Below are positions 14,238 to 43,105 of a stretch of DNA of 64,000 nt, one piece after another (position 1 is the stretch's first letter; each line of letters begins with the position of its first letter). Made by a program: the position numbers and the translations under genes. Origin of the DNA: Desulfobulbaceae bacterium (GTDB lineage: Bacteria > Desulfobacterota > Desulfobulbia > Desulfobulbales > SURF-16). The notes beneath the pieces are model-generated. The model saw nothing but the letters and a program-made list of their open reading frames with translations. It made no database searches and had not been told where the DNA came from. The DNA lies in assembly GCA_003249165.1 (NCBI GenBank), contig QKJV01000098.1, positions 19,793 to 83,792 on the forward strand. Reading direction: 5' to 3'.

Positions 14238-14418
14238 ATTGACTTGTTTCCCAGAACGGATAAAAGCATAAAAGTTCAGTGGACATGTTTCCACGCACGG
14301 ATAATGCCCATAAAAACCACTATCGACATATTCCCACGAACAGAAAATCAGCAAAACACATACCAGACATCAATCTGATGCTATCGTTCCACGTTGAGAC
14401 GGTCGTATTGATAACAAG
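14238..14418. repeat. Copy 1 of a ~180-bp direct repeat (partner at 41702-41881)
   Basis: Hand alignment gives roughly 80 percent identity, higher in the 3-prime half. Contains three TTCC(N2-3)GAACGGA-like motifs (14246, 14287, 14330) and the palindrome CATCAATCTGATG (14368-14380). Confidence 0.85.
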
Positions 14419-14984
14419 GGTTAACAAGCAAGTGTAGTAAGAAGCCTGTAAACAAAGGCTTTCAAAGGTTTGAGAGTGAAAAATCGAAGTGATAAAAACG
14501 TGAAAATATCTGTTCGCGGGAACAAGTCCAAAGTCATGATTTTGAACGTGACAGAGCGATTTAGATGTCGGTGCTTAGTGAGTGGTTGGGAATGGTGTGC
14601 AGCGCTACGCTGATGTCCTCGGCAAGCTGCTTTCTCTGCTTGCCTGTGATGTTGTAGGGTATTGTCATTTTCATGTAAAAATCCTCCGTTCTTTTAATCT
14701 TCTTAAAAGGCTGTCGCGTTTTGCGACTCCCTTTGCTCGATGGGCTGTACCAATGGACGCTGAACACTTCGTTCACCGTTCCGGTCAGCCCGGTTCCTTC
14801 TTTTCGGTATGTGTATATTCGCTCTGAATGCACAGAATAGCAAGTCATTTTCGAGAGATGTATCAGAAAATTAAAAGTTTTCCGCAGGACATTTTCTTAT
14901 AATGTGCGAAACAGTATTGTATTTTGAGATATTTTGTGCTATTATATAGTTTAGATTATTGTGTATTAAGGCTGGAGGCGTAAT

Positions 14985-15197
14985 ATGGCTACCTCATATA
15001 ACAAGCTATGGAAACTGCTCGTAGACAAGAAAATGAGCAAGGCCGACTTGCGAAAAGCCTCCGGTGTGTCTCCTAACACGATGACAAAACTGCGCCGGGA
15101 CGAGCCGGTCATGCTGAGTGTGCTGGACAAGATATGTAAAACGTTGGATGCCAATTATGGGGACATCGTTGACTATGTGCCGGATGATACTTTTTAA
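14985..15197 (+). CDS. XRE/Cro-type helix-turn-helix regulator
   Basis: YNKLWKLLVDKKMSKADLRKASGVSPNTMTKLRRDEPVMLSVLDKICKTLD is a typical short HTH_26/XRE protein. RBS ggagg. Confidence 0.8.
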   Translation: MATSYNKLWKLLVDKKMSKADLRKASGVSPNTMTKLRRDEPVMLSVLDKICKTLDANYGDIVDYVPDDTF

Positions 15198-15280
15198 TGT
15201 TACTATGAGGAATGAAAATAAAACTTCTTACGTATCAAGCTTGTTCAAATATAAGAATTAATTGATGGGAGTGATAATTT

Positions 15281-16453
15281 ATGGCGCAACTTGCCGAAAT
15301 CATCAAGTATGAAGGAGATAATTCTACCTTCATATGGAAGCATCCTTGTGAGGACTTCAACACAACTACACAGTTGATTGTTCATGAGTCGCAGGAAGCG
15401 ATATTCTTTATGAACGGTCAGGCGTTAGATTTGTTTGGAGCGGGTCGGTACACGCTCGAAACCGAAAATATCCCGCTCATCAAGAAGTTTCTCAACAAAC
15501 CGACAGGCGACAAAACGCCGTTTCATTGCGAAGTCTATTTCATCAATAAGACCGAGCAGATGGCGATTCGCTGGGGAACCGACAGCAAGGTGCAGTATGT
15601 AGAACCTACATATAAATTCCCGCTTTCCATTGGTGCAAGCGGTGAAATGGCTCTTTCTGTTGACGATTCGCGAAAACTACTCGTCAGACTCGTTGGCACG
15701 GAGCGTGTTTTGGAACAACCAAAGCTGGTGGCTTTCTTCCGGGCTTTCCTGATGACGAAGGTAAAAACCTACATTGCACAAACAATGAAAGCCAGTGCTA
15801 TCAATATATTTGAGATTGACGAGCATCTAGAGAGCTTCTCCACGGAAATCAGGGAACGCCTGATTAAAGACTTCTCGGATTACGGTGTTGCACTGAAACG
15901 CTTCTTCGTCACCACGATTGTGAAGCCGGACGGTGACCCTACATATGAGAAGTTCAAGGATTTGCATTACAGGCAATACGCCGATGTTGCTGAAGCCCAA
16001 CTTCAACAGAGAGTAGGCATCATCGAACAGCAAACCGAAGCCCAGCGTATGGTGATTGAGGCTCAGGGAATCGCACAAAAGCGAACTACCGAAGGTTACT
16101 CCTACCAGCAAGAGCGTGGATTCGATGTTGCTGAAAAGGTTGCCGCAAACGAAGGTGCTGGGAACTTCAGCAGTGCAGGAATCGGATTAGGCATGATGGC
16201 TGGAATCGGTGGTGCGGTCGGCGGCGCAGTAAGTGGCACCTTCAATGAAGCATTCGCTTCGATTGGAACGCCGAACGCTTCCGCTCCTAATCGGTTCTGT
16301 GACGCTTGTGGTGAGGAAATCACCCCCGGCGCGGCATTCTGCGATAATTGCGGAACTCAGCTAAGTTTACCTGATGTGTGCAATAAATGCGGGTTCAAGT
16401 TCATCAAGCCCGGCAAATTCTGCCCTAAATGCGGCACAAAGAGGGAGGGATAA
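15281..16453 (+). CDS. SPFH/band-7 family protein with a C-terminal double zinc ribbon (COG4260/YdjI-like)
   Basis: N-terminal IIKYEGDNSTFIWKHPCEDFNTTTQLIVHESQEAIFF is SPFH-like. Gly-rich linker. C-terminus has CDACG...CDNCG...CNKCG...CPKCG. Confidence 0.75.
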   Translation: MAQLAEIIKYEGDNSTFIWKHPCEDFNTTTQLIVHESQEAIFFMNGQALDLFGAGRYTLETENIPLIKKFLNKPTGDKTPFHCEVYFINKTEQMAIRWGTDSKVQYVEPTYKFPLSIGASGEMALSVDDSRKLLVRLVGTERVLEQPKLVAFFRAFLMTKVKTYIAQTMKASAINIFEIDEHLESFSTEIRERLIKDFSDYGVALKRFFVTTIVKPDGDPTYEKFKDLHYRQYADVAEAQLQQRVGIIEQQTEAQRMVIEAQGIAQKRTTEGYSYQQERGFDVAEKVAANEGAGNFSSAGIGLGMMAGIGGAVGGAVSGTFNEAFASIGTPNASAPNRFCDACGEEITPGAAFCDNCGTQLSLPDVCNKCGFKFIKPGKFCPKCGTKREG

Positions 16454-16456
16454 AGA

Positions 16457-17131
16457 ATGTCGAAGAATAAAAAGTTAGGGTACATAGTATTAGCCATATC
16501 GTTTGTCCTTTTCAATGTTATCGCGTTCGCAGTTCCGACAGACAAGACTTCCGCATTTTGGATCGCGTATGCCTTTACAGTAATCGCTTTTTCGGCACAG
16601 ATATTTATATGGAATCTGGCATTCAGCAAGGCTGGAACACTCAAAAGTAAATTCTTAGGGTTACCAATAATCCATGTTGGTATTGTTTATCTGATAATCC
16701 AGCTAGTCGCATTCGGTGTATTCTTAGCTCTTCCGTGGATTGCAAACTGGATTTCGATAATCAGTTGTGCCGTTATTCTCGGAGGTTCTGGAATTTGCTT
16801 GATAACTTCAGAGGTTGGGAGAGAAGAAATTGCACGGGTAGAAGAAAAGGTTCAGCGCAAGATTTCAGCAATCAAGGGCTTGCAAGCTGATGTTGAATTG
16901 ATTGCCGAGACGCAATCAGATGCCGCCGCAAAAGAGGCTCTCGAAGCCCTCGCGGATAAACTTAAATACAGTGATCCGATGAGCGACGATTCACTGGTTC
17001 CTATTGAAGATAATATTAGCGCAAAAATAACCTCTCTGAAAACTCAGCCAACAGCCGACATTTTGAACTCGGTTAAGCAAATAGAAATGTTGCTGTTGGA
17101 ACGAAATAATAAATCAAAGCTATTGAAATAG
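16457..17131 (+). CDS. Four-TM membrane protein with a helical cytoplasmic tail
   Basis: Four hydrophobic segments in the first ~115 aa. Starts 3 nt after the SPFH gene stop. Confidence 0.6.
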   Translation: MSKNKKLGYIVLAISFVLFNVIAFAVPTDKTSAFWIAYAFTVIAFSAQIFIWNLAFSKAGTLKSKFLGLPIIHVGIVYLIIQLVAFGVFLALPWIANWISIISCAVILGGSGICLITSEVGREEIARVEEKVQRKISAIKGLQADVELIAETQSDAAAKEALEALADKLKYSDPMSDDSLVPIEDNISAKITSLKTQPTADILNSVKQIEMLLLERNNKSKLLK

Positions 17132-17143
17132 GAGGGAATAACT

Positions 17144-18436
17144 ATGGCGGCACTTGTTTGCGATATTTGTGGAGGCAAATTGACAATGGGTTCCGGCGGC
17201 ATCGCGGTTTGCGATAGCTGTGGGATGGAGCACACTAAAGAACGTATGCAGGAGAAAGTTCAAGAGATAAAAGGTACTGTCCGTATAGATAACTCTCATA
17301 TGACTGACAGCTGGATGAAAATGGGTCATGCTGCGGCATCTGCGGGCAACCATAAAGAAGCATATGAATATTTCACTAAGGTAATAGAAGTTGATTCGGA
17401 AAATTGGCGTGCTATATATGAGAAAGGTAAAGCGGGTGCTTGGCAGTCTACGCTCGGCAACTTGCGAACCTCTGAAATTTACCAAGGCATTACATTGGCT
17501 CTTGAAATTATAAATCGCTCCAATTTGACAGAAGCCGAAGTTGTTGACTTAAAGAATGAGTTTGCCGTTGCTCTATTTAATATTAACAACGCCATTACAG
17601 ATTTAATGGAACAAAATCTATCCGAGTTAAATGATAAATATTTTGATTCGCATTGGGATCAAATGTGGAATACAAGACAGCGTTACCTCACAAATGTAGA
17701 GCAGTTGGAAGATGCATTAAGTTTGATTAGTGACTTAGAAGATGATTTGTCAAAAGGGAATGTTATCGAATTTAAGAAGAGAATGTGTGCAGACTTAAAA
17801 AACGCCTGCGAATCAATTCAATATTGGACGGATTACTCAGAATCGTCGTTAGGCTACTTGGGCTTCTCAGCATCCGAAAAACAAATATATTTGGATAAAT
17901 TTTGGAGTCTGGCAGATGATATTCGGTTAGTTGAGCCAGATTATGCCACAACGAAATACAGTCAACCGGATCCGTTTAATGCGGGATATGAATCTAACCG
18001 TGCGGATAGAATTATGCAATATTGGCAGAAGCAAGATGATGAAAGGCGATTGAAGAAAAAGAGAGAAGCACAAGAAAAACGATTCACAGAATACTGGAAT
18101 GCACACCCAGAAGAAAAGGCAATGCTTGAAGCTGAAGCTCAAAGCCTTACCCAACAGATAGTCGTACTTAACACGGAAATCAACAACGTTCCCGGGAAAG
18201 CGGAAATTACGAATATACAGGGCAGAATAAGCAAACTAAAGACCGACAAGGACGCTCTGAGTATCTTCAAAGGCAAAGAGAAGAAAGCTATTCAGGAGCA
18301 AATCGATGCTGCTACTTCGGAACTTAATGGTGTGCAGTCACGCCGCAATGCCGCTATCGAGGATATAAATCGGAAAATTGCTCCTTTGGAAAAGCGCAAA
18401 GTGGCAATTGCGGAAGAGTTTACCAAAGATAGATGA
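17144..18436 (+). CDS. N-terminal zinc-ribbon protein with TPR-like and coiled-coil regions (YdjG-like role proposed)
   Basis: MAALVCDICGGKL...CDSCGMEH zinc ribbon. HKEAYEYFTKVIEVDSENWRAIYEKG is TPR-like. K/E-rich coiled-coil C-terminus. RBS ggaggg. Confidence 0.5.
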   Translation: MAALVCDICGGKLTMGSGGIAVCDSCGMEHTKERMQEKVQEIKGTVRIDNSHMTDSWMKMGHAAASAGNHKEAYEYFTKVIEVDSENWRAIYEKGKAGAWQSTLGNLRTSEIYQGITLALEIINRSNLTEAEVVDLKNEFAVALFNINNAITDLMEQNLSELNDKYFDSHWDQMWNTRQRYLTNVEQLEDALSLISDLEDDLSKGNVIEFKKRMCADLKNACESIQYWTDYSESSLGYLGFSASEKQIYLDKFWSLADDIRLVEPDYATTKYSQPDPFNAGYESNRADRIMQYWQKQDDERRLKKKREAQEKRFTEYWNAHPEEKAMLEAEAQSLTQQIVVLNTEINNVPGKAEITNIQGRISKLKTDKDALSIFKGKEKKAIQEQIDAATSELNGVQSRRNAAIEDINRKIAPLEKRKVAIAEEFTKDR

Positions 18437-18512
18437 ATATGAGACAGCGTGTATAGATTTATATAAAAACGTACTCCGCGCTGTACTGATTTTTTTGAAA
18501 GGAGAGGTGTTT

Positions 18513-20024
18513 ATGCAAAGGTCTCTGCTTGTCGGCAACGGACTCGACATTCAGCTTGGCGGGAATGATTTCTTGAACAAGTGGATTCTTGTTCGTCTAT
18601 TAGCTGACGTAAAATCAGGAAAATACGATGAACTGTTCAGAGACAAAGAAAGCACATCTCCTTCGATATCTGGCGACGAACTTGTGGCTCTTTTCATGGA
18701 AATGCCATCACTAGCAAATAAAGCCCGTAGGTGTGGCTTTGATTCTTTAATAGATGCTGCCAAAGAGTCAGAAATTGTGGCTGCTTTAGTAGATTTTAAA
18801 GCAAAGTACACATGGGATGTAACAAGTCCGGAACAAATCGGCTTAGAAGATTGGCTGCTTTTGTTGCGCCTATTCTTGCAGGAACAAGCTGATTTGTTAC
18901 CGCTATTTGGCTCTATGAAACAAGGGTTTGAACGAGTTATCCTTGATAGTATCTACTGTAATGGTATGATTCAGCAAATTCATAAAAATGCCTGTAAAAA
19001 AGCAAAAGAATTTTTTTGTGGATTCGATTCACTGTTTACACTGAACTATGATAACAATCTCGAAAAACTCTCTGGGAAGCCAGTTTATCATTTGCATGGT
19101 GATTTTGAAACGGTGGCTTTGAGCGAGAACCCTAATACTGCATATGGCTTTTTAAGAAAACAGAGGGGCGAAACCGTCTACTTCCCGCCAAATTTCCAGC
19201 ATTGTAATTGTAATACGATACTCGATTACAGCGGAGATAATAAGTATAAACTTGCTGCGGCTCTTTCTTCTGCGATACCAGAATTCGAAAAGCTGAAGTC
19301 GCTATATGATAACGACGGGGGCGAATTTAATAATTCCCTGTCAGAGTTTCCTCCTGAACAGCAGGAAATCATTATGGTTGGTATGGAGCAAAATTTACCG
19401 CTTGGCTACAACTATCATTTCAATGATTTGGAGATGCTTGCGGGTGAACTGACAATTATCGGCATAGCTCCCCAGAACGATCGACATCTGTTCGAGTTGA
19501 TAAATAGAAGCAATCTCAATAAGGTTTTGTTTTATCATTTATTCCCCCCGGATGACGAACCTGCTCCGGTATTGCCAATTTGCAAACCTTACGAAGTCAA
19601 GAATGTCAGTAATCTTTGGGCGGATATCAAATTGCAGAAACCGATGTATCTGAGTGCAACTGGTAAAGATTTCTACTTTAAATCAATAAATAATAGAGCG
19701 GAGACGCAAAAGTTCGTGGATGTTTTTAATGCGTTTGAGACGGCTGCAAACGCAATAAGCATTGCGGATCTCTTAGAACAGCTTAAATCCATACCTAAGG
19801 AAACAGAAAAATCGATTATTAACATGATGAAAGCTGAAATTCAAAAGGGTAAATACCACACATCACCAGAAACAGCAGAGGCACAATATAAACAGTTTCG
19901 AGGATTTGGAAGGACGCTTGTTACCTCTTCGTTAAGCCCGCAAACCCTGTATTTCTTATATATCTCTAATATTCGGAATAACAAGGCAAAAGCAACTATA
20001 AAGCGCAAAAAGAAAAAGAAATAA
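18513..20024 (+). CDS. AbiH/DUF4917-like (SIR2-fold-like) putative abortive-infection protein
   Basis: LLVGNGLDIQLGG, FTLNYDNNLE and YHLHGDF follow the GNGF / TxNYD / LHG pattern of AbiH, DUF4917 and SIR2_2 families. I preferred the internal ATG at 18513 with RBS aaaggagag over the track start at 18378. Confidence 0.5.
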   Translation: MQRSLLVGNGLDIQLGGNDFLNKWILVRLLADVKSGKYDELFRDKESTSPSISGDELVALFMEMPSLANKARRCGFDSLIDAAKESEIVAALVDFKAKYTWDVTSPEQIGLEDWLLLLRLFLQEQADLLPLFGSMKQGFERVILDSIYCNGMIQQIHKNACKKAKEFFCGFDSLFTLNYDNNLEKLSGKPVYHLHGDFETVALSENPNTAYGFLRKQRGETVYFPPNFQHCNCNTILDYSGDNKYKLAAALSSAIPEFEKLKSLYDNDGGEFNNSLSEFPPEQQEIIMVGMEQNLPLGYNYHFNDLEMLAGELTIIGIAPQNDRHLFELINRSNLNKVLFYHLFPPDDEPAPVLPICKPYEVKNVSNLWADIKLQKPMYLSATGKDFYFKSINNRAETQKFVDVFNAFETAANAISIADLLEQLKSIPKETEKSIINMMKAEIQKGKYHTSPETAEAQYKQFRGFGRTLVTSSLSPQTLYFLYISNIRNNKAKATIKRKKKKK

Positions 20025-20249
20025 TATTTTAGCTATTTGGGGCGGTTTTTGTACTTCCTCCGGCGAAGAGCCTGTACTGAACCATTTAAAGCAGAGTGTG
20101 GTTGTAGAAGGTATAGCAACCATAAAAAATATCCGGTAACAAAGTGAATCCTGCCAACAGCATTGCCAGAGTATTCTTGTAAATCTTTGTAGCGTGTAGT
20201 CGCATGACATCACATAAATTTAAACACCAACTAAACACCAAAGGCTTCG

Positions 20250-20702
20250 TTACAGTGCCGAAAAGTCCCGTAGTATGGGGATTTCTGCTGTATCGAAGTC
20301 TTTTTTCTCGTAGAAAACGGGTATGCTCTTTTCCTTAAGCTGCCGGATGTATTTCAGGCAATCCAGGGTATTGCGGGCAAACCTGCTGATGGATTTTGTA
20401 ATGACCATGTCGATGCTGCCCGCCATGCACTCATCGATCATTCGGTTGAATTCTTCACGCTTCTTTGTATTTGTACCTGAGATGCCGTCATCTGCATAAA
20501 TTCCTGCCAGTGTCCAATCCGGATGGCCGTTGATGTAAGCTGTGTAATGCTCAATCTGCGCATCGTAGCTGGTAGCTTGTTCATCACTGTCGGTTGAAAC
20601 CCTACAGTAGGCAGCAACACGGAGTTTTGGCTTTTCTTCATCACTATCTTTTCGGATATGCTTCCTTGCTGGAAGCACCGTAACAGTTCTATTTGTTGCC
20701 AA
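20250..20702 (-). pseudogene. Truncated large serine recombinase (catalytic resolvase domain only)
   Basis: [15 protein letters not shown]...SISRFARNT...[11 protein letters not shown] parallels the intact copies at 46808 and 50335. It then diverges ([10 protein letters not shown]-stop) with no recombinase or zinc-ribbon domains. Confidence 0.75.
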
Positions 20703-20916
20703 TTGTTTACACCTCGCTTTCTATTAGGCTATCATCTGCTGCGCAGCTCCGTGGACTTGTCTGTGCCTTATACATTCGTTTCACCTCCTTGGAAGGAGCG
20801 CTTGTCGTTTTGCTCTTTCCACTACCCAATGGAGGTGAAAATGCTGTTTGAACGAAAATCGAGAAAAGTTTTTCTCCGGCCCCCTAAAAAGGCAGCCGGA
20901 GAATGATGGTGCGGTA

Positions 20917-21438
20917 TCAGATGTAGTCGTGCAGGAGCTCTCGCAAAGTGTCAAATGCTTTTTTCTTTTTGTAGTTGATAGTGGATTGCTGAGAAATGCC
21001 CATGATGGCAGCTATCTCTCGTTCCGTCTTATCCTGAAGCAAAAGTTCACAGATGCGGCGACCATCAGGGTCGAGCTTGTCCAGCTTGCATAGAAGGGCG
21101 TCCAGTAGTTCGCGCTCTTCCAAAACTGACTGAGCGCTGGGAGAATCGTCTGGTAAGTCATCGAGCCAGCTTTTTTCGTTACCATCCTCGTCCGAAACGG
21201 TGTAGTCAAGGGAAAGCTCATCCCCACCTTTGCGAAAACGGCAGGTGCAGCAGTCCATGTCGCAGAGATAGCGCTTGCTTGCAGGGCAGACACAGCGGCC
21301 ATGTTCTTGTTGCCTACGACGATAGGCATTGATGTCACGGTAATAGTTGTCATAGTCGATTTTGCTGATAGACACCCATTGGTGCAGGTCTTTGAGGTAG
21401 ATTGCGCGTTCGGTGGGTTGATTGTCTTGGGTTTTCAT
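20917..21438 (-). CDS. Sigma-70 region-4-like HTH protein with a Cys-rich N-terminus (mobile-element type)
   Basis: C-terminal RRICELLLQDKTEREIAAIMGISQQSTINYKKKKAFDTLRE is a region 4.2-like HTH. Cys cluster CVCP...CDMDCCTC. Sits upstream of the recombinase remnant, as in the 44876/46808 arrangement. Confidence 0.6.
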   Translation of the reverse strand: MKTQDNQPTERAIYLKDLHQWVSISKIDYDNYYRDINAYRRRQQEHGRCVCPASKRYLCDMDCCTCRFRKGGDELSLDYTVSDEDGNEKSWLDDLPDDSPSAQSVLEERELLDALLCKLDKLDPDGRRICELLLQDKTEREIAAIMGISQQSTINYKKKKAFDTLRELLHDYI

Positions 21439-21522
21439 TTAGATTTCCTCCTGTGATTTGAATTGCGTGAGCAATCGCAGGGAGGAAACATGTTGAAAAA
21501 TGTAAAATTTACCATTATGTCA

Positions 21523-21551
21523 TTGAATTTCGGTTTACTACGTGATATAAT
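21523..21551 (+). promoter_or_regulatory. Putative sigma-A promoter (TTGAAT-17-TATAAT with extended -10 TG)
   Basis: TTGAAT at 21523-21528, 17-nt spacer, TGaTATAAT ending at 21551. About 190 nt upstream of the 21743 ORF. Confidence 0.45.
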
Positions 21552-21742
21552 GGTTTAGTTGGGTTTGGTGGGAGTTACGAAAGTAAGTAACCTGCACCGG
21601 CTTTGCTGTATCCAGAAGCAATAAAAAATGCCCCTGCGATTTCTCACAAGGACATGAAATTGTTCGCCGAGTTCGCCAGCCATACTTCGTTTGGTTGCTT
21701 GGAGTTCGCCGAGTTAGTTTTTTTGAAATATGGTGAAAATCT

Positions 21743-22675
21743 ATGACAAACACTTTAAAACAGCGCCTTTGCGGCGGTACTTTTTTCACATTATTTTTAC
21801 GCGCCAGAAAGCCCTTGCGTGGAGCAAATGAATATTATGCAGGGACTCCAGAGCCATATTCCGAACCCATAGCTCTGTTTGCCTTATCTAAGGTGATAGT
21901 TCCTGATTGGAAGAGCATATTTGTATACGCCGATAGCACAGTTAGTGGTAATACTTCGGAATATAAGACCTGTAACAATGAAGGCGGCTCAATATACCCT
22001 TTTGGTGATGGTGCAGCGCTGACTGCATTCAATGCACGAATCAAAGAAAACTATCCTTCTGTATTAGCCGAAATGTGCAAGGTTATAGGCTTGCTCGTTG
22101 ACACCGGCAGCATGAGAAAAGATGAGCGCTTTGTTAAAGAGCTTTTAGCCTTGATTGCAGTCGATGATTCCATCGGGGATAGTCAACCTTTCTTTGCTCT
22201 GGAAAGCGGCGATACTATAACAAAATCCGATCTCCTCAAAGCAACAGGTGTTTGCTTACAATCATTTTTATTAGGTGTTTGGCATTTCGCAGTAACCCGT
22301 TCGGAAAAGAACACTTTTGGTAAGGAAACAATCGATCTATGGTGTCCTTCAACCGGGGGTGGAAAGCGCGAATACAAAGGTAACCTTGCAAACCTCATAA
22401 CAAGGAATATCACGCTAACCTATCGTGAACCATTTGAGGAAAGTGCAGATTCCGAAATTGTTGATGAGCCCTTGGTGGATGAGCCTATGACAAGTGATGA
22501 ACCTCATAGCGAGGAACAATCGACAGAAAAAGAACCTGCCGCATCCAATTTGACGCAGCAGGTTATAAACAACAATCCGACATTCTTCAATTTCAACATA
22601 TCAGGCAATAACAACAGCTTCTATAACAGGGTAGATACAGTAAATATTAAGAACGGAGGGCAAAAAGATGAGTGA
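21743..22675 (+). CDS. Hypothetical protein (acidic DEP-repeat linker, Asn-rich C-terminus)
   Basis: Long ORF with no motif I recognise. Overlaps the next ORF by 8 nt. The start codon is uncertain. Confidence 0.4.
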   Translation: MTNTLKQRLCGGTFFTLFLRARKPLRGANEYYAGTPEPYSEPIALFALSKVIVPDWKSIFVYADSTVSGNTSEYKTCNNEGGSIYPFGDGAALTAFNARIKENYPSVLAEMCKVIGLLVDTGSMRKDERFVKELLALIAVDDSIGDSQPFFALESGDTITKSDLLKATGVCLQSFLLGVWHFAVTRSEKNTFGKETIDLWCPSTGGGKREYKGNLANLITRNITLTYREPFEESADSEIVDEPLVDEPMTSDEPHSEEQSTEKEPAASNLTQQVINNNPTFFNFNISGNNNSFYNRVDTVNIKNGGQKDE

Positions 22676-23294
22676 GAAACTTCAGCCGATCTCATCGGCC
22701 TTCCTTCCGTCGAACGGCGCATCGGCTAATATAACTCTACCCGGCGACGGGAACACATTGATTGCCCAGGCCAATGTGGTAAACATGAAAAGCGTGTACA
22801 TTCCTGTTGTTCAGGCAAACGGTGTAACACTTCCGACAAGACGGACTGTGAATGAGGATTATTATAATCTTTTCGTTATTGGCGATGAAACATTTACTGG
22901 AGGATATTTTATCGTACCGAAGAAGTGTGCATTAACTGAAAGCATAGCGCCAGAATTGAAAGCCTTGTATGCTAAGCTCGATATGAATGCCATTGCAGCA
23001 ATCAAAACTTTCCCAGCCATATTCGCAAGCAAAAATCATCAGTATTGTTGTGCGGGAGTGAATCAAGAGGCATACCTCGGATTTGTAAATGATATAAGCA
23101 TTCAGGACAACGGTATTAAGGTTTCTTTTCATCTACTGTATGCAATTCCCCAGAGAAGATTGAATGAACTTGCTTGTGAGATTTCTATTGACTGTGCTTC
23201 AGCGTTCAACGAATTCGACAATACGCATTGGACAATTAAGCGGATAAACATTATAGAAAAACTGCGTAAAGCAGGCATAGACACACTCCTTTAA
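22668..23294 (+). CDS. Hypothetical protein
   Basis: Long ORF translationally coupled to the preceding one. No recognisable motif. Confidence 0.4.
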   Translation: MSEKLQPISSAFLPSNGASANITLPGDGNTLIAQANVVNMKSVYIPVVQANGVTLPTRRTVNEDYYNLFVIGDETFTGGYFIVPKKCALTESIAPELKALYAKLDMNAIAAIKTFPAIFASKNHQYCCAGVNQEAYLGFVNDISIQDNGIKVSFHLLYAIPQRRLNELACEISIDCASAFNEFDNTHWTIKRINIIEKLRKAGIDTLL

Positions 23295-23342
23295 GATAAA
23301 TAGCCGCACAGAAACTCGATATACACATTATGGAGGTTCAAT

Positions 23343-23543
23343 ATGAGTAACGAGAAAGAAAACAGTGTTCCTGAAAAATGGGTAAACCTTGAGGATGTTG
23401 CAGAACATCTCAGCGTTAGCAAGGACACCGTCCGCACATGGATGCGGGAAGGTAAACTCCCCATTAACAAAGCTGGGAAGAGATACAAGTTCAAAATTTC
23501 CGAAGTTGATGAATGGGTACGAAAAGGAAAAATCAAAGATTAA
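23343..23543 (+). CDS. Excisionase/MerR-type small HTH DNA-binding protein
   Basis: WVNLEDVAEHLSVSKDTVRTWMREGKLPINKAGKRYKFKISEVDEWV matches the excisionase-family HTH pattern. Confidence 0.75.
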   Translation: MSNEKENSVPEKWVNLEDVAEHLSVSKDTVRTWMREGKLPINKAGKRYKFKISEVDEWVRKGKIKD

Positions 23544-23600
23544 TAGGCAATAAATGATATTTCGTAAATACCGACCAATCTCGGTGGAAGGAGAAAAATT

Positions 23601-25877: not shown

Positions 25878-25945
25878 GCCCCTCTCATGGGACAGCCAAT
25901 GGCGTAGAATGATAACGGGCAAAAAGCCTGAGTGGAGGAAATTTT

Positions 25946-28051: not shown

Positions 28052-28063
28052 GGCGGTGATTTT

Positions 28064-32726: not shown

Positions 32727-32737
32727 GGAGGGGTATC

Positions 32738-35569: not shown

Positions 35570-36630
35570 TTAAGAACAAGAGCATTTTCATAAAAAACAT
35601 ATATTATATGCTTTCCTATGCCTTTACGACATTGAATCAATCTAATTTTGAAGATGTGGCGACTGAGGAATTTGAGAATATGCATAACCTCTTTGCCGCA
35701 ATTCTCGCAAAAGGCATCGGCCAACAGTTGAAGCAGGGTTTGTATCGCGAGTATTTGAACAAAAGAGAAAATATGGCGGTCATGCGTGGAAAAATCGATA
35801 TGTCTGGAACTATCAAAAACAAGATTGCACGGCAGCAAATTCTTTCTTGCGATTATGATGATCTGTCGGAAAACAATCTCCTAAATCAAATCCTGAAGAC
35901 CACAGTTATGATTTTGCTCCGTCTGTCAAAAGTCAATACCGAGTATAAAGACGCGCTCAAAAAAGAAATGCTATTTTTCTCAAATGTTGATACCATCGAA
36001 CCGGCATCAATCCGATGGTCGTCAATTCGTTTCCAGCGAAATAATCAGACTTATCGTATGCTCGTCAGTATCTGCCAGCTTATTCTGGAAGGAATGCTTT
36101 TGACAACGGAACAAGGCGAATACAAGCTGGCTTCTTTTGTTGACGAGCAGAGAATGTGCCGTTTATATGAGAAGTTTATATTGGAATACTACAGCAAGAA
36201 GTTTCCTGCATTGAGTGTGAGTGCATCGCAGATTCCGTGGGCCTTGGATGACGGCATTGGAACGATGCTCCCCACAATGCAGAGTGATATTACACTTTCT
36301 CACGGAAACGAAGTGCTTATTATTGATGCAAAGTATTATTCTCATACCACGCAGGCGCAATATGATGTACATACGCTTCATTCCGGCAACCTGTATCAGA
36401 TATTTACCTATGTAAAGAACAGAGACTCCGAATTTGGAGAGAAACCACATAAGGTATCAGGAATGCTTCTGTATGCCAAAACCGATGAAACAATACAGCC
36501 AGACAATGAATATCGGATGAGTGGTAACAAAATCAGCGTAAGGACACTCGACTTGAATTGCGAGTTTCCTGTAATCGCTGCACAGCTAAATAGCATCGCT
36601 AAGAGTCATTTTGGTGAGATCATTGCGTAA
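35566..36630 (+). CDS. mcrC: McrC-like nuclease subunit
   Basis: ATGA overlap with the mcrB stop. LIIDAKYY PD-(D/E)xK motif. I preferred the start at 35566 over 35536. Confidence 0.8.
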   Translation: MIKNKSIFIKNIYYMLSYAFTTLNQSNFEDVATEEFENMHNLFAAILAKGIGQQLKQGLYREYLNKRENMAVMRGKIDMSGTIKNKIARQQILSCDYDDLSENNLLNQILKTTVMILLRLSKVNTEYKDALKKEMLFFSNVDTIEPASIRWSSIRFQRNNQTYRMLVSICQLILEGMLLTTEQGEYKLASFVDEQRMCRLYEKFILEYYSKKFPALSVSASQIPWALDDGIGTMLPTMQSDITLSHGNEVLIIDAKYYSHTTQAQYDVHTLHSGNLYQIFTYVKNRDSEFGEKPHKVSGMLLYAKTDETIQPDNEYRMSGNKISVRTLDLNCEFPVIAAQLNSIAKSHFGEIIA

Positions 36631-36655
36631 TCTTTAACCCGGGAGGAGGTGCATT

Positions 36656-37690
36656 ATGCCCTTTACTATCGTCCGGCAGGACATCACAAAAATGAAAGTT
36701 GACGCCATTGTCAATGCCGCCAACACCGATCTGCAAATGGGCGGTGGGGTTTGCGGAGCTATATTCAAAGCTGCGGGAGTACTTGAACTCCAAGCCGCCT
36801 GTGATAAACTCGCTCCGATAAAGACGGGCGAGGCAATTATTACTCCAGGCTTCAATCTCTCAGCTAAGTTTGTTATCCATGCGGTGGGTCCGGTTTATCG
36901 GCATTGGAGCAAAGAGCAGAACGAGCAGCACCTTCACGCTGCCTATACGAACTCGCTGAAAAGAGCTGTTGAAAACAAGTGTGAAAGCATAGCATTTCCT
37001 TTGATTTCAAGTGGTATCTATGGCTATCCAAAAGACGAGGCACTTAAAGTGGCTACCTCAGCGATTCAAGATTTCCTCAAAGATTACGATCTTGAGGTGA
37101 CCATTGTGGTGTTTGACAAGTCAGCATTCACCATCAGCCGCGAACTACTCGGAGAAGTCGAAAGCTACATTGATGAGCATTATATCGAAACACACCAAAT
37201 AAAGCGGCGACAACTGCTTGATATAGAGCGGGAAGCCTTTTACGAAGCTGACAAAGATGTTAGTAAATATAACAAGCCTCTTTTTGAAGAAATGCTCGCT
37301 CCGTCTGTTGGTGCGCCCGCTCCACTTGATGATTTGGTCGGCAATCTGGACGAGCCGTTCTCCGCGACACTCCTGCGGCTGATTGACGCCAAGGAAAAGA
37401 CGGATGTGGAAGTTTACAAACGTGCAAATCTTGACCGAAAGCTGTTCTCCAAGATACGGAGCAACAAAGGCTATACGCCGAGTAAGCGCACTGCCCTTGC
37501 TCTTGCCGTGGCGCTGGAATTGTCACTCAGCGAAACTGATGACCTCTTGGAGCGGGCAGGATATGCACTTTCCCATGCAGCCAAGTTCGATGTAATCGTG
37601 GAATATTTCATCACTAACGGTAAATATGACGTTTTCGAGATAAATGAAGTGCTGTTTGAGTACGACCAGCCGCTGTTGGGAGGGTGTTGA
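36656..37690 (+). CDS. Macro domain (ADP-ribose binding/hydrolase) protein with a C-terminal HTH-like domain
   Basis: VDAIVNAANTDLQMGGGVCGAIFKAAG plus ISSGIYGYP are macro motifs. C-terminal LRLIDAKEKTDVEVYKRANLDRKLFSKIRS...TALALAVALELS is XRE-like. RBS gggaggagg. Confidence 0.8.
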   Translation: MPFTIVRQDITKMKVDAIVNAANTDLQMGGGVCGAIFKAAGVLELQAACDKLAPIKTGEAIITPGFNLSAKFVIHAVGPVYRHWSKEQNEQHLHAAYTNSLKRAVENKCESIAFPLISSGIYGYPKDEALKVATSAIQDFLKDYDLEVTIVVFDKSAFTISRELLGEVESYIDEHYIETHQIKRRQLLDIEREAFYEADKDVSKYNKPLFEEMLAPSVGAPAPLDDLVGNLDEPFSATLLRLIDAKEKTDVEVYKRANLDRKLFSKIRSNKGYTPSKRTALALAVALELSLSETDDLLERAGYALSHAAKFDVIVEYFITNGKYDVFEINEVLFEYDQPLLGGC

Positions 37691-39000
37691 TTGTGGATTA
37701 TTTTCTGATTATAGCATTGCCAATAATAGCACTCGCTCAAATTGCCGGAGGGGTAGTTTTTTTGTGTAAAAAAACAAATTCCAACGATAACAACGCCATA
37801 AGCACAGAACAGTCCGATTCAACTAACTCGGAGGTACTTATGCCAGTAGGATGTGTTAAGGGCTACGAAATAACTATACCAATTGAACTTCTGCCTGCGA
37901 CAACCCAGATTGAGGATAAGAGCCTGTTTGAAATTACTGACCACACGGTCATTTCTCGAATTTCTGGACTAATACCTTTTACATTGCAAAATGGGACAAG
38001 GATAATGGCAAACAATGCTCTCAACCCACTAAAAGGTACAGAGTTAGTAAAAATGGATATTCCATTTTCACAACTCACGAAGTCGAAAGACATGGCAGGT
38101 GCTGCAAGAGGTTATGTTCACGGAGGTAAGGGCGTAGCGGCACAAGCAAATTTAACTAAAGTTGACATGACCAAAGTCACAAAAGCGACTGCTGTCGCTA
38201 ACGGAGTGGCGAATGTGATGAATGTTGGCTCTTTAGTCGTCGGACAGTATTATATGTCCGAGATAAGTTCCAAGTTAGAAACTATGACAAAGAGCATAGA
38301 TAAAATCAGCGATTTTCAAGACAGGGAGTTTAAGAGTCGGATATTATCGGTGATTACTCTTGTTGGAGAAATTTCTCAATTCAGCTCTGAAATAATGGAA
38401 GACGATGAGCAGCGAACACTTAAACTTTCAGCTTTAGAAAACTTAAAAGCTACTGCTACCGAACTGCTGGGGCAAGTAAACATTACAATATCTGGAATCA
38501 CTCAGAAAAGCCCTAATCCTAATTATGAAGATTATCAGTACAAAGTTGGAGATCTCAAAGTTTTAGTTGAGTATCAAAACATATTAGTTGCTGTTCTCGC
38601 GGAAATTAGCAAGTTGACGTATTTGTTAGGTAAAGGGGCAATTTCGACTGAACGCAGCTATGCCATATACAGTAAGTATTTGGAACAAGCCAAACAAACT
38701 CGAACCCTTCTTGGACAATGGCACGATAAGCAAGTTACGGCACTGCATATTGATTTAAACAAAGAGCGCATTTCCAAAGCGGGGTTTGAAGCTATTATTT
38801 CGGCTCCACTGGGCTTGATAGATGATAAATTTAAGTTTAAGGCCTTAAAACAAAGCCTTGTTTACGAGATAAGCACCCAAGCTAACCAAAGTCTCGAAAG
38901 TCCAGATGAACCAAAACGTATCTACGATGAAGATGTAGAAATCATCATAAAGGACGGCAAATATTATTATCTACACGAATCACTGGAAACGGATGAATAA
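37684..39000 (+). CDS. N-terminally membrane-anchored protein, unknown function
   Basis: GTG start overlaps the macro gene stop (GTGTTGA). TM helix IIALPIIALAQIAGGVVFL. Internal Gly/Ala/Val-rich segment ATAVANGVANVMNVGSLVVG. Helical C-terminal half. Confidence 0.45.
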   Translation: MLIVDYFLIIALPIIALAQIAGGVVFLCKKTNSNDNNAISTEQSDSTNSEVLMPVGCVKGYEITIPIELLPATTQIEDKSLFEITDHTVISRISGLIPFTLQNGTRIMANNALNPLKGTELVKMDIPFSQLTKSKDMAGAARGYVHGGKGVAAQANLTKVDMTKVTKATAVANGVANVMNVGSLVVGQYYMSEISSKLETMTKSIDKISDFQDREFKSRILSVITLVGEISQFSSEIMEDDEQRTLKLSALENLKATATELLGQVNITISGITQKSPNPNYEDYQYKVGDLKVLVEYQNILVAVLAEISKLTYLLGKGAISTERSYAIYSKYLEQAKQTRTLLGQWHDKQVTALHIDLNKERISKAGFEAIISAPLGLIDDKFKFKALKQSLVYEISTQANQSLESPDEPKRIYDEDVEIIIKDGKYYYLHESLETDE

Positions 39001-39098
39001 CAATTTCGTAAGCTGTTAATGTCGTTTCGGAAGCGACCTCTCGCCCCTCGCCAAGTAGTATTCTAAGGTTACAATAAAAATCTTAGGAGGCTACGGAA

Positions 39099-39752
39099 AT
39101 GAAAAAAGGATTAACGGAATTAGTATTTATACTCGACAAAAGCGGATCGATGGGTGGATTAGAAACCGATACTATAGGTGGCTACAATACTATGCTTAAG
39201 AAGCAGCAGACGGTCGATGGCGAATGCCATATCACAACGGTGCTTTTTGATAACAACTACGAGCTACTCCACGACCGTATAGATATCAAGGCGGTCAGCC
39301 CAATCACCGAAAAGGAGTACCAAGTCGGCGGATCAACTGCGCTTCTTGACGCAATTGGGAGGACGATACACAAAATCGGCAATGCCCAGCAGCACACCGC
39401 CGACGATTACCGTGCAGAAAAGGTCATGTTCGTCATCATCACCGACGGCGAGGAGAACAGCAGCCGCGAGTACAGCTCGGACAAAGTCAAGGCGCAGATT
39501 GAGCGGCAGAAGGCAAAATACGGTTGGGAGTTTATCTTCCTTGGCGCGAATATTGACGCTGTGCAGACAGCTTCGCGCTTCGGCATAGCACCCGACCGCG
39601 CTCAGAATTATCACGCTGACAGCGAGGGCGTGGAACTCAACTTCCGTGTAATGAGCGAGGCTGTCGCCACCTTCCGAGAATGCGCCGCCATGCCGGAGGG
39701 TTGGAATGACGAGATACAGAAGGACTATAAACGACGCGGCAGCAAGCGTTAA
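39099..39752 (+). CDS. von Willebrand factor A (vWA) domain protein
   Basis: MIDAS DKSGSM, GGSTALLDAIG, IITDGEEN. RBS aggagg. Confidence 0.8.
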   Translation: MKKGLTELVFILDKSGSMGGLETDTIGGYNTMLKKQQTVDGECHITTVLFDNNYELLHDRIDIKAVSPITEKEYQVGGSTALLDAIGRTIHKIGNAQQHTADDYRAEKVMFVIITDGEENSSREYSSDKVKAQIERQKAKYGWEFIFLGANIDAVQTASRFGIAPDRAQNYHADSEGVELNFRVMSEAVATFRECAAMPEGWNDEIQKDYKRRGSKR

Positions 39753-39789
39753 TAAGAGATGATCGTAGCCTACTGCGTAAGGAGAAAAT

Positions 39790-41550
39790 ATGAGTATTAT
39801 AAAACATAATTTATTGCCCAAGCAAAAGTCGCGTAAAAACCATCTTGAAGTTGAGGTAGATTTATATCCTTACGCATCAGAGCTATATGACGAATTGAAT
39901 TCTTTGGGAATAATTCAAAGAATGAAAGAAATACCCCAGTTGGGAGTTATCAAGGTTCCGAAAAAGCTTGAAAAAAGCAGATACGATTATGTAATGCTGC
40001 AATTGTACTTGCATCAGCTTATTAAAAATAAATTACAGAGTCAGTTAAGACTGACATATAACAATCCGGTAAAATCTTATGAATTCAGGCCTGATTACCA
40101 TTACAATACAAAAGAAGACAAGCCAACTATCGGTGATGTCCTTCAGCTACTTACAATCGTGTATAACATCGGCCATTTTTATAATACATTTACATCCTCA
40201 CGAGCAGTCACAATGATGGCCACCGAAGATGATACATTTAAGAAAATGATTGTATCTGCTTCGACTGACAATAAATATGCACCTGTTGTAAATAAGCTAC
40301 TTACAGACAATGATTATCAACACTTTCACCTGATAAATTCTATTTTGATTTTGGAGCATTGCGACCAAGCTAAACAATCAGTAATACTGGCAAAGGAAAT
40401 ATTATATGCATACATAAACGAGAAGAGTTTACCCACTGAGAGTAAACTCGCATATGCATTTTCAGTTTTTAGAAATGTCCGCACCGTATCCTATATGGCG
40501 TATGATTTACAAATTGCCAACACACCGCTTACTATAGATTTGTGTAATCAAGACGCCGTTCTGGTTTTGCTCAGGGAATTATTGTCAGAATATAACAATA
40601 GCAGGTCTTCATCCAGACTTATCGAATCAGTTAGCAAATTGCTGGATGATACGGTGTATAACGAAAACTCAAATGCTATCTGCTATTATAAAATATCAAG
40701 GAAAATCGTTTCATTCCTTCAAAGGAAAGAGTACTTCGAGGAAAGAAAATATTTCGATGATTTTTTTCTCAATAGAACGAGTTTATTAAATTGTTCCTAT
40801 TCACACAATAGAGATTACGTACAAGAGGCAATATTAAAGATTACTTTTCAACGAAGTGAAAGACATATATCTGAGGATACTTTTTTCACACTTGAACGCA
40901 TTAATAATACTCGTGTTGGGTATTATGATCGACATACTGGTGAGCAAACGATACTGGTTTCTCTTAAAAAACATTGCGCTTCAAAGACTGCTGCTGCTCT
41001 TCATGTATTAAGAACCGTAGTAGGTGCTCTGAGAAAAATTGAAGGTATCGCGCCAAATGATATCCGTTTTTTGCTATGCGTTAAATTCTTCTTGTTCTAT
41101 TTATTTAACGAAAATCCTGTTTTGATTAAGCCAACAATCGATGAACACACCTGCGTTATATGTACAAGAGGAAAAAACAGTCGAATAACTGAAGTCAAAA
41201 AACTTCTCAATGATGGGTGTGGAAATCCAGATCAAAATCATGAAGCGGCATTTATGGTTAATTGCTTAGAAGAAGATAAGCTGAATGATACTACAATATG
41301 TGTCCCCGCAAGTATAGTAGTTTATCAAAAAGATGCCGTTGGCCGAAAACTCTGTGAATTTGATGGAATCGTTATACGTCCTATGCGAAAGCAGAAACAA
41401 GTATTATTTCTTGAAGCTAAAAACACTACAGATAAGCCTTCACTTGCAAAAAATTGCTTAATCGAAAAATTAGATAAATTGTCATTTTCATATTCAGCAA
41501 CTGATATCCAGACAGTTAATTATGATGCAGAATTAGAAGTTACAATCTAA
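39790..41550 (+). CDS. Hypothetical 586-aa protein: degenerate HD-like N-terminus plus C-terminal PD-(D/E)xK-like motif
   Basis: RMKEIPQLGVIKVPKKLEKSRYDYVMLQ and VYNIGHF mimic the layout of SAMHD1/dGTPase-type HD domains but lack the His/Asp residues. C-terminal EFDGIVI...LFLEAKN. The sequence looks very AT-rich in hand-counted stretches. Confidence 0.4.
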   Translation: MSIIKHNLLPKQKSRKNHLEVEVDLYPYASELYDELNSLGIIQRMKEIPQLGVIKVPKKLEKSRYDYVMLQLYLHQLIKNKLQSQLRLTYNNPVKSYEFRPDYHYNTKEDKPTIGDVLQLLTIVYNIGHFYNTFTSSRAVTMMATEDDTFKKMIVSASTDNKYAPVVNKLLTDNDYQHFHLINSILILEHCDQAKQSVILAKEILYAYINEKSLPTESKLAYAFSVFRNVRTVSYMAYDLQIANTPLTIDLCNQDAVLVLLRELLSEYNNSRSSSRLIESVSKLLDDTVYNENSNAICYYKISRKIVSFLQRKEYFEERKYFDDFFLNRTSLLNCSYSHNRDYVQEAILKITFQRSERHISEDTFFTLERINNTRVGYYDRHTGEQTILVSLKKHCASKTAAALHVLRTVVGALRKIEGIAPNDIRFLLCVKFFLFYLFNENPVLIKPTIDEHTCVICTRGKNSRITEVKKLLNDGCGNPDQNHEAAFMVNCLEEDKLNDTTICVPASIVVYQKDAVGRKLCEFDGIVIRPMRKQKQVLFLEAKNTTDKPSLAKNCLIEKLDKLSFSYSATDIQTVNYDAELEVTI

Positions 41551-41578
41551 AAATATGCTTTATTATATTGAGAACCCT

Positions 41579-41627
41579 CGCTAACGATTTATACTTGCGC
41601 TAACGAAACCTAAACCTGCGCTAACGA
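41579..41627. repeat. Three phased direct repeats of CGCTAACGA (~20-bp spacing)
   Basis: CGCTAACGA at 41579, 41598 and 41619. Located 30 nt after the stop of the 586-aa ORF and upstream of repeat copy 2. Confidence 0.7.
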
Positions 41628-41701
41628 TTTATCCGGCAAATGAACACTGTATCAAAATTATCAGCCTTTGCCAACGGAGGCGGCGAGACTCTAACCCTAT
41701 T

Positions 41702-41881
41702 ATTGACTTGTTTCCGAGAACGGATTAAAACAAAATAAAAGTGTGGATATATTTCCACGAACGGAGATTATCCCAAAAACCATCATCGACCTATTCCCGA
41801 GAACGATAAATCAGCAAACCACATACCAGACATCAATATGATGCTATCGTTCCATGTGGAGAGTGTTGTATTGATAACAAG
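41702..41881. repeat. Copy 2 of the ~180-bp direct repeat (partner at 14238-14418)
   Basis: Same order of three TTCC(N2-3)GAACGGA-like motifs (41710, 41751, 41793) and the palindrome CATCAATATGATG (41831-41843). Confidence 0.85.
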
Positions 41882-43087: not shown

Positions 43088-43105
43088 TCCGTCACCTGAT
43101 TTTTT
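43073..43105 (+). terminator. Rho-independent terminator
   Basis: Stem caggtgtcgg / ccgtcacctg (1 mismatch) followed by tttttt. Confidence 0.6.

Follow-up and report, generated by a model that had tools for sequence, protein, structure and literature searches.

The window analysed here, a stretch of 64,000 nucleotides (nt) from contig QKJV01000098.1, carries a long block of defence genes in which two direct repeats stand 27.46 kb apart, and it is the nature of these repeats, and of the segment that they delimit, that we consider in this work. Copy 1 (14238-14418) and copy 2 (41702-41881) are housed in the intergenic gaps at 14099-14975 and 41551-42118, whose flanking genes lie on the plus strand; the gene upstream of copy 1 encodes a helicase (stop 14098), and that upstream of copy 2 an unknown protein of 586 amino acids (aa; stop 41550). 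The segment between the copies, referred to below as island 2, holds a helix-turn-helix (HTH) gene, genes for SPFH-zinc ribbon and tetratricopeptide repeat (TPR) proteins and for a PDC-S06/AAA_13 ATPase, type I restriction-modification (R-M) and McrBC systems, and Macro and vWA genes, and its minus strand carries a recombinase fragment and a sigma-like gene. Positions 1-14.1 kb, to the left of copy 1, are taken up by further defence genes, namely type III R-M, an SbcCD-like pair, a PLD protein and the helicase, and the guanine-plus-cytosine (GC) fraction, which is 0.40-0.49 ahead of copy 2, falls there to 0.33-0.39.

In a global alignment the two repeat copies are identical at 153/185 columns (82.7%), with 9 gap columns, and the longest perfect run common to both is 18 nt. 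A repeat finder places them in direct orientation with a start-to-start spacing of 27,463-27,464 nt. Similarity extends rightward to 14463/41926 at 69% and, weakly (51%), leftward to ~14165/41620, and a profile built from 21 members of the family described below detects two full copies only in the 64 kb (E = 5.5e-51 and 3e-48). In line with these data, an earlier note on this DNA had reported two repeats in the same orientation with about 80 percent identity, a core stretch nearly identical in both, similarity for some 50 nt further and a change of composition at copy 2, all of which hold up. Its list of cargo stands for the ATPase, type I R-M, McrBC, Macro and vWA genes, but the AbiH-like label given to 21743-22675 was not reproduced by Pfam or PADLOC; similarly, the repeats do bracket a discrete 27.46-kb unit, as it had proposed, but defence genes are found to the left of copy 1 as well. 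A tRNA-linked attachment (att) site could be ruled out, since ARAGORN found no tRNA or tmRNA in the window.

Each repeat is part of a larger joint of ~420 nt. Read along the plus strand, this joint begins with an arm of ~225 nt, apparently the right end of the preceding island, which carries three similar boxes in direct orientation and closes with a 24-nt half-site; the dinucleotide CA follows, at which the crossover is placed, and beyond it the putative left-end arm of the next island opens with a mirror-image half-site. The core site is symmetric, consisting of GACATCAAT + 15 nt, CA, and 15 nt + ATTGATGTC, or 24 + 2 + 24 nt. The individual features are listed below, with each box given as its translation; numbers prefixed by L designate related loci found elsewhere.

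14165..14389, plus strand: copy 1, putative right-end arm of the island occupying 1-14.4 kb, with three boxes and a 24-nt half-site
14165-14237: copy 1, outer part of the right arm, with a TAACGATTT motif and an AT-rich block
14238-14258: copy 1, box 1, IDLFPRT
14279-14299: copy 1, box 2, VDMFPRT
14322-14342: copy 1, box 3, IDIFPRT
14366-14389: copy 1, 24-nt half-site GACATCAATCTGATGCTATCGTTC
14390..14391, plus strand: copy 1, predicted crossover CA, which opens the His codon of a RumA-type tail
14392..14586, plus strand: copy 1, putative left-end arm of the 27.46-kb island, 72-79% identical over ~200 nt to L053 and to the sequence that follows rumA in L014
14392-14415: copy 1, mirror half-site, terminating in ATTGATAAC
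14390-14437: copy 1, replacement RumA tail HVETVVLITRVNKQV-stop
~14441-14460: copy 1, left-arm hairpin
14511-14531 (profile match 14507-14544), minus strand: isolated inverted box, LDLFPRT
14392..41852, plus strand: island 2, lying between the two crossovers and measuring 27,463 bp CA to CA
20250..20702, minus strand: truncated large serine recombinase, 150 aa, Resolvase N-terminal domain only
41620..41852, plus strand: copy 2, putative right-end arm of island 2, with three boxes, a 24-nt half-site and GCTAACGA repeats from 41581
41702-41722: copy 2, box 1, IDLFPRT
41743-41763: copy 2, box 2, VDIFPRT
41785-41805: copy 2, box 3, IDLFPRT
41829-41852: copy 2, 24-nt half-site
41853..41854, plus strand: copy 2, predicted crossover CA; homology to loci with a right arm only ends at 41854-41855
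41855..41936, plus strand: copy 2, short left-arm-like segment with mirror half-site, tail and hairpin
41853-41894: copy 2, tail HVESVVLITRKDR-stop

The mirror half-site of the left arm, whose 3' end reads ATTGAT(G/A)(T/A)C, also encodes HVETVVL..stop, and past it the arm continues into the hairpin and, where it is long, the inverted box. The left arm of copy 1 is of the long kind, with homology to L004, L014, L032, L048 and L053 up to ~14586 that includes the inverted box; this box is the mirror image of the outermost direct box, each lying ~138 nt from CA. In copy 2 the left arm amounts to no more than its first 75-80 nt, the likeness to other left arms ending at ~41926-41936. The spacing of the boxes is 41-43 nt in the window, and boxes 1 and 2 are 31 nt apart in most loci.

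We then used a 21-nt pattern from the invariant core to collect related loci. The pattern occurs at 22 places in GTDB (one genome per species), 20 of which are real and nearly all of which belong to Clostridia/Bacillota, including Acetanaerobacterium elongatum and Caproiciproducens faecalis; a metagenome scan added 29 further loci, and IMG/VR gave 0 matches. The real loci are all intergenic and all share one box-core-tail architecture, in which a left block (TAACGATTT motifs, GTGCATTTTATCAATAGATAGT) is followed by the three boxes and the core CCAGACATCAATCTGATGCTATCGTTCCA, and then, in most loci, by YGTTGAGACGGTGGTATTGATGTCAAGG and another conserved stretch. Box offsets from the core are fixed at -41, -83/84, and -114/115 or -124/125. 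The unit is co-oriented with its neighbour genes in 20/20 genome loci, and these neighbours are unrelated between loci: the 150 non-redundant flanking proteins matched 163 Pfam families, among them Macro, reverse transcriptases, Fic, SMODS/AGS_C, Abi_C, PLD and methylases. Some modules recur, including a type III R-M module and a Macro + vWA pair, which lies upstream of the unit in seven loci and, as a right-end module, is followed beyond the junction by genes that differ from locus to locus. Several loci have adjacent copies, L026/L052 have three copies 1.7-2 kb apart with single-gene units between them, and unit sizes across the family range from 0.16 to 27 kb. The earlier note had asked for alternative cargo and for evidence that the repeat is more than a common dispersed element; related loci indeed join different cargo at exactly this sequence, and the unit is not generic, having two copies in the window and ~50 related loci with variable cargo on both sides. 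The family also includes cargo-free tandem mini-units, made up of an inverted box-like half-site, a direct box, a 24-nt half-site and CA, which measure 157 nt in L030 (11897-12203, equal to L033 4052-4358) and occur in L013, L029/L034, L031 and L048 as well.

The sequence to the right of the core can be read as protein. From the ATG inside CTGATGCTATCG, the post-core segment of ~50 copies translates as MLS(F/C)HVE(T/C/S)VVL(M/I)(S/T)R.. and then stops, with differences between copies that are in many cases synonymous (GTA GAA ACA GTT GTT TTA in L019 versus GTT GAG ACG GTG GTA TTG in others) or conservative, and with variants such as HIETVVQLIR (L035) and HIETIALLQR (L053). This peptide is the C-terminus of RumA/RlmD-type methyltransferases, as seen in the intact genes of L014, L005 and L045, which end in ...PVDMFPRCGHVETVVLMSRVQD, ...DMFPWTGHVECVILMQR.. 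and ...DMFPQTYHVETIV.., respectively, and whose products all have the TRAM + tRNA_U5-meth_tr domains; the product of rumA/rlmD is the 23S rRNA m5U methyltransferase. Both window copies encode such a replacement RumA C-terminus in the left end (14390-14437 and 41853-41894). The boxes point to the same gene. A RumA query matches them at residues 431-446 by tblastn, all 7/7 window boxes translate as xD(L/M/I)FPRT despite nucleotide differences, and among 44 distinct copies the variability of box 3 is codon-periodic, with means of ~0.24, 0.09 and 0.34 at codon positions 1, 2 and 3 and first-position changes only where Ile/Val/Leu or CGA/AGA permit them. As the tail peptide equals the RumA C-terminus and the boxes are copies of the adjoining RumA motif, the repeat consists of rumA 3'-end sequence plus element-specific DNA.

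Several other readings of these segments were dropped. MLSFHVE... is not preceded by a ribosome-binding site, as a leader peptide would be, and equals the RumA C-terminus; a GTTC-N4-GAAC operator palindrome does not suit boxes that vary in a codon-periodic manner and match RumA DMFPRT; and the right arm has no similarity by tblastn to the 3' end of a recombinase gene, of which it might have been a decayed relic. We found no description of phased rumA-mimic boxes in the literature searched.

Loci that reach rumA itself show how the two arms relate to this gene. L039 starts in the rumA 3' end and turns, at the His codon, into HVECVVLMSRVEK-stop and the conserved flank; 4.2 kb further on, a full right arm with boxes and core is joined to a different tail, HVESVILMTYCGDK-stop, which is followed by oppositely oriented chromosome-like genes. 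L014 has an intact-looking rumA, whose last codons, together with 200 nt of the sequence behind them, match window 14390-14586 at 72% identity, and ~1.9 kb past rumA a core half-site without boxes is joined to another tail. L042 has the rumA 3' end, then homologues of window 1-5540 (window position 1 corresponding to L042 position 2660) and, 10.1 kb later, a junction. The island adjacent to rumA varies among L042, L049, L036 and the window. Since the segment to the right of the core is seen fused to rumA at attL, and the box-bearing arm to the left of the core is seen beside a native tail at attR, these would be the left and right ends of an island, respectively. In L053 (5540-5640), a good tail and left arm in mid-array are directly preceded by the decayed remains of a rumA 3' end, which read LDMFPSTS followed by VDMFPITTGVETAVLIA and no longer have the His codon; this is a fossil of an older joint.

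The breakpoints of homology fall at one dinucleotide. Loci that have only the right arm stop matching the window at 14391 and 41854-41855, left-arm-only homology (rumA-linked L014, L053) begins at 14390, and the attL and junction of L042 differ up to CA and are identical from CA onward. From these breakpoints we infer that the overlap is the dinucleotide CA at the start of the His codon. Large serine recombinases use a 2-bp overlap within a 50-bp site of partial dyad symmetry, and an enzyme of this class would fit. A GA crossover, as in streptococcal elements, was considered and dropped in favour of CA, because class B sequences have no GA at a fixed position; the GA, 6 nt downstream, may nevertheless be the true point, as both partners have the same sequence from CA onward. 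In these class B junctions the rumA tail is missing, and 21 nt after CA stands a box-like half-site in reverse complement in its place; chromosome-like genes, or at once another right arm, come next.

Two further kinds of record carry the site. A variant junction lies at 7001-7086 of the E. faecalis plasmid LR962847.1 (L056), beside the spw gene within a multiresistance cluster, and also in LR962441.1 and NZ_CP042290.1, so that such sites travel on enterococcal plasmids as well; it retains GACATCAAT, CA, the RumA-type tail and the left arm. Its inner 15 nt, by contrast, are different, which suggests that constraint on the site falls on the outer motif and the crossover. In a 'Ca. Heliusvirales' phage record (PV036457.1; L055/L057), a junction at 12416-12734 separates a Macro/vWA/HD module from type I R-M within a 24-kb minus-strand block that adjoins the phage's structural and replication genes. 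The first 26 kb of this record yielded neither rumA nor a serine recombinase, and the block may be an adjacent island swept into a predicted prophage.

Because related loci show the left arm directly after rumA and the right arm against a native rumA tail, we propose that each repeat is probably an attP-like joint between neighbours in a head-to-tail stack of islands at the rumA/rlmD 3' end. An island circle, with its right arm, CA and left arm in this order, would be integrated by a large serine recombinase into the rumA His codon, ~13 to 16 codons ahead of the stop. The left arm would restore the RumA tail, leaving rumA intact, and the new rumA-island joint, resembling the target again, would accept the next island. 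Islands would thus pile up with the newest beside rumA, since the restored tail re-creates the target, and the resulting array would read rumA, island n, ..., island 1, native tail, with a full copy of the repeat at every internal joint. In the window, copy 1 would be the joint between islands 1 and 2, and copy 2 that between island 2 and either island 3 or the native flank, while rumA would lie ~2.6 kb to the left of the window. The repeats are accordingly not the two ends of one cassette, as first supposed in the earlier note, each being instead one island's right end and the next island's left end; the alternative it had offered, two related islands accreted in tandem, is supported, and the site can now be named as the rumA/rlmD 3' end.

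Codon 443 of rumA (the 11th from the end) is known as a cross-species hot spot for elements with serine recombinases, where vanG elements and ICE-r are found, often in tandem, in S. agalactiae, S. anginosus, E. faecalis and Roseburia intestinalis (PMC4120198). The left ends of these elements encode residues like the RumA terminus, and the gene for the serine recombinase, which lies at the right end, is joined to the 3' codons of rumA (PMC4120198). Streptococcal integrative and conjugative elements (ICEs) with a single serine integrase likewise target rumA, as does CTn5 in C. difficile (PMC4701971). The rumA elements described from Firmicutes include vanG, ICE-r, ICESp2905, IME_SpnAP200_rumA and CTn5 in C. 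difficile 630 delta-erm (PMC4120198, PMC4701971, PMC5704250).

Several points weigh against tandem integration at rumA as set out above. The right end of the described elements is their recombinase gene, which exchanges its 3' end with rumA, whereas here the right arm is a non-coding stretch of ~225 nt with three boxes; and their crossover is the GA of a GAG Glu codon, whereas the breakpoints here fall at the CA of a His codon, 6 nt upstream. Island 2 lacks an intact recombinase, a recombinase occurs in just ~5 of the related loci having enough flank, and the three recombinase genes at 46808-51960 have their own stops, no rumA fusion and, where aligned, 31-53% identity to the family enzyme. 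No circular form or empty site was observed. The class B junctions have no explanation under the rumA-tail model. The rumA gene lies outside the window, and its presence to the left is deduced from the synteny with L042/L049 alone; extending the left flank by exact protein look-up gave no record for two window proteins and, for the WYL protein past copy 2, 1.4-kb contigs only. Finally, in L042 the 445 nt after CA are duplicated (123-567 and 10288-10732) with 98.7% identity and are divergent beyond, which resembles a Campbell-type homologous insertion; an open reading frame (ORF) that starts in this segment may resemble an IS256-family transposase in its N-terminal motif.

The last of these points leads to the best of the alternatives, in which the arms serve as portable homology: islands would be exchanged by RecA through rumA and the arms after conjugation or transformation, and the arms would be fossils of old integrations. 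The L042 duplication is what a single homologous crossover leaves, most islands are without a recombinase, and the authors of PMC4120198 detected no circular forms and considered homologous recombination within species. Yet similarity breaks at one dinucleotide in many unrelated loci, arms compared between loci reach only 70-80% identity and share short runs (<=18 nt in the window pair), and the boxes keep both their codon periodicity and their phased positions, which neutral fossils would lose. We therefore regard this explanation as unlikely.

Less likely again is a recombinase of another class, such as a tyrosine integrase, for which the direct boxes would be arm-type sites and the rumA tail the identical core, as at the 3' ends of tRNA genes. 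The size of ~420 nt, the several direct repeats in one arm and the long segment shared by attL and attR do recall attP/attB of the lambda type. The boxes, however, resemble the target half-site and not a separate arm-type motif, the 24 + 2 + 24 palindrome-like core has the size of a serine integrase site, and published rumA elements use serine recombinases (PMC4701971, PMC4120198). Moreover, Resolvase/Recombinase/Zn_ribbon_recom are recurrent among the flanking proteins, whereas no tyrosine integrase family was matched by 2 or more of the 150, nor was one found in the window ORFs scanned.

We also asked whether the unit could be a cis-regulatory leader, that is, a promoter/operator region or a structured RNA, with the boxes as GTTC-N4-GAAC operators for the island's HTH or WYL regulator. 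It is always intergenic and co-oriented with the downstream genes, its boxes are partly dyad-symmetric, and copies 1 and 2 stand upstream of an HTH and a WYL gene, respectively; but downstream genes are unrelated between loci, and the variation of the boxes tracks codon positions and breaks the dyad, as in GTTTCCCAGAAC. As for RNA structure, copy 2 folds with z = -3.3, but copy 1 does no better than its shuffles (z = -1.05) and adopts a different structure, and there is no Rfam match to 14100-15000 even at E = 10 apart from two at chance level. Nor is there a sigma-70-like promoter within the unit, and both the homology to rumA and the breakpoints would be left unexplained, which together make this reading very improbable. 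As candidates in their own right, a sigma-70 promoter (none in copy 1; in copy 2 just a 9/12 match between boxes 1 and 2, at chance level) and a known RNA family (Rfam 15; no match for the unit in the window at gathering score, and folds inconsistent between copies) were likewise rejected. A small dispersed repeat resembling a miniature inverted-repeat transposable element and unlinked to island borders is the least probable of all, for although short cargo-free tandem units exist (157 nt in L030/L033; adjacent copies in L013, L029, L031 and L048), the 64 kb hold two copies only, both at module borders, the unit has no terminal inverted repeats or target duplications and a fixed orientation to flanking genes, and L014, L039 and L042 link it directly to rumA.

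Returning to integration by a serine recombinase at rumA, homologues of one large serine recombinase were found near the junctions of L004, L018, L031 and L032, with the genes of L004, L031 and L032 lying 1.5-3.7 kb downstream of the junction on the minus strand. The L032 enzyme is intact, with 522 aa and Resolvase, Recombinase and Zn_ribbon_recom domains, and its gene lies 2.1 kb downstream of the junction in the same orientation as the fragment in the window. That fragment (20250-20702) begins the L032 match 5.8 kb past copy 1: it agrees with the first 138 residues of the L032 protein at 80% identity and then stops, so that it is a pseudogene. No intact integrase was seen in island 2, nor did Pfam identify relaxase, coupling protein or type IV secretion system families among its large ORFs. 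With its recombinase reduced to a fragment of 150 aa, island 2 looks like a decayed defence island of the cis-mobilizable element (CIME) type, flanked by att sites and devoid of a functional integrase or transfer genes, which would be movable only in trans or with the whole array. Its left end contains, past the inverted box, a 95-aa ORF without a family match (14561-14848, minus) and a 73-aa HTH_26 gene (14976-15197).

This bears on the losses that the earlier note had envisaged. Homology-driven deletion of the 27.5 kb is unlikely, given ~80% identity and a longest identical run of 18 nt. Canonical serine integrases do not recombine two attP-like sites. Site-specific excision of island 2 alone is therefore not expected, as both joints are attP-like and its own recombinase is broken, but excision of the whole array, or action in trans, may occur. 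Among the related loci, none showed a precise loss of island 2. Over evolutionary time, by contrast, exchange at the joint site is evident, as the Macro/vWA module is found with different downstream genes and the island adjacent to rumA varies.

The boxes deserve separate consideration. Large serine recombinases are thought to need only an attP of ~50 bp. That the boxes vary like codons would be explained if the integrase were to recognise the conserved DMFPRT codons by their non-wobble bases; the enzyme would find rumA in many hosts, and extra copies of the half-site would be kept. The fixed positions of the boxes, their spacing of 41-43 or 31 nt, equal to four or three helical turns, and the mirror box ~138 nt beyond CA argue that they are retained for some function. 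We tentatively raise the possibility, which is far from certain, that the joint is a complex attP of an undescribed kind, in which a 24 + CA + 24 core is accompanied by accessory half-sites that build a higher-order integrase complex; these half-sites would be the boxes that imitate rumA DMFPRT, three of them direct on one arm and one inverted on the other. If this idea were true, islands without a recombinase might be inserted, excised and exchanged at rumA in trans, in a cassette-like manner.

To the right of copy 2, the short left-arm-like segment may be the left end of a third island at 42-53.6 kb, or it may be the native rumA tail, and the region at 42-53.6 kb may correspondingly be a third island or host DNA bearing another element; no third junction or rumA tail closing the array was found in 42-64 kb. 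Directly past copy 2 (42119-44189) are genes for a WYL-domain regulator, an XRE-type HTH protein and an M78 (ImmA/IrrE-like) peptidase, and an identical WYL protein with the upstream junction tail occurs on three short metagenome contigs (L023-L025). Between a sigma-like gene (44876-45382) and the serine recombinase genes stands a pemK RNA motif (RF02913, 60 bits, 45617-45697), with a small ORF and the gene of a PemK/MazF toxin (45996-46337) downstream of it. The first and third of the latter (46808-48355 and 50335-51960) are directly preceded by a 109-nt direct repeat (46681-46789 and 50218-50326, 92% identical), between the copies of which are a KilA-N gene and a recombinase without catalytic domain (49345-50232), and the arrangement resembles a duplication of the 5' region within the recombinase triplet. 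Amidoligase_2 and gamma-glutamyl cyclotransferase-like (GGACT/AIG2) genes (52028-53620) lie between the triplet and chromosome-like genes, and no island border was recognised there.

Stepwise addition at the rumA 3' end would account for the assembly of a defence block of more than 40 kb. In practical terms, the conserved joint of ~420 nt serves as a border marker: a single short pattern was enough to bring up ~50 island borders, from genomes of Clostridia and from digester or gut metagenomes, and with it borders, cargo modules and exchanges become mappable to the base.

Among known systems, the res sites of Tn3, gamma-delta and Sin combine a crossover with accessory subsites, which are inverted-repeat dimer sites, by the gene of a resolvase of ~180-200 aa, and two directly repeated res sites resolve a cointegrate. 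The joints described here differ in that the boxes are single, direct, half-site-like units with codon periodicity, the enzymes are 520-aa large serine recombinases, and no transposase is associated. Like an integron cassette array, the locus consists of co-oriented cargo modules parted by a repeated recombination site. Unlike such arrays, it has no IntI, no attI and no folded single-strand site of the attC type (no attC-like imperfect hairpin is present in the repeat), the site being instead a double-stranded palindrome-like core of 50 bp with long arms.

A closer parallel is offered by accretion. Tandem accretion and decay to CIMEs have been described for ICEs and for integrative and mobilizable elements (PMC5704250), and according to the account given there of ICESt1/ICESt3-type elements and their CIMEs (Pavlovic 2004 and Bellanger 2011, as cited in PMC5704250), these resemble island 2 as decayed islands in tandem at one target that have kept their att sites and lost their integrase, each internal att site combining one element's right end with the next element's left end. 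On the same account they differ in their enzymes, which are tyrosine integrases, in their target, which is fda or a tRNA gene at its 3' end, and in that cis-mobilization has been demonstrated experimentally, whereas the present case is drawn from sequence.

The described rumA elements are the most similar of all. They insert into the terminal codons of rumA and run in the direction of that gene, as is predicted for the islands here. Both have a left end that supplies an in-frame mimic of the RumA C-terminus and form tandem arrays of unrelated elements at one site, seen in the window as two full joints 27,463 nt apart. A large serine recombinase accompanies the described elements and some of the related loci, island 2 having a fragment of it, and Clostridia (Roseburia, C. 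difficile) are among the hosts of the described elements. They carry conjugation genes and resistance cargo, whereas the islands here carry defence systems and many are without a recombinase; and those islands that have the family recombinase mostly encode it on the opposite strand, 1.5-3.7 kb in from the left end. It is by their box-bearing, non-coding arm and by the placing of the recombinase gene that they depart from the described elements. With them the rumA hot spot, so far familiar chiefly from resistance ICEs of streptococci, extends to defence islands.

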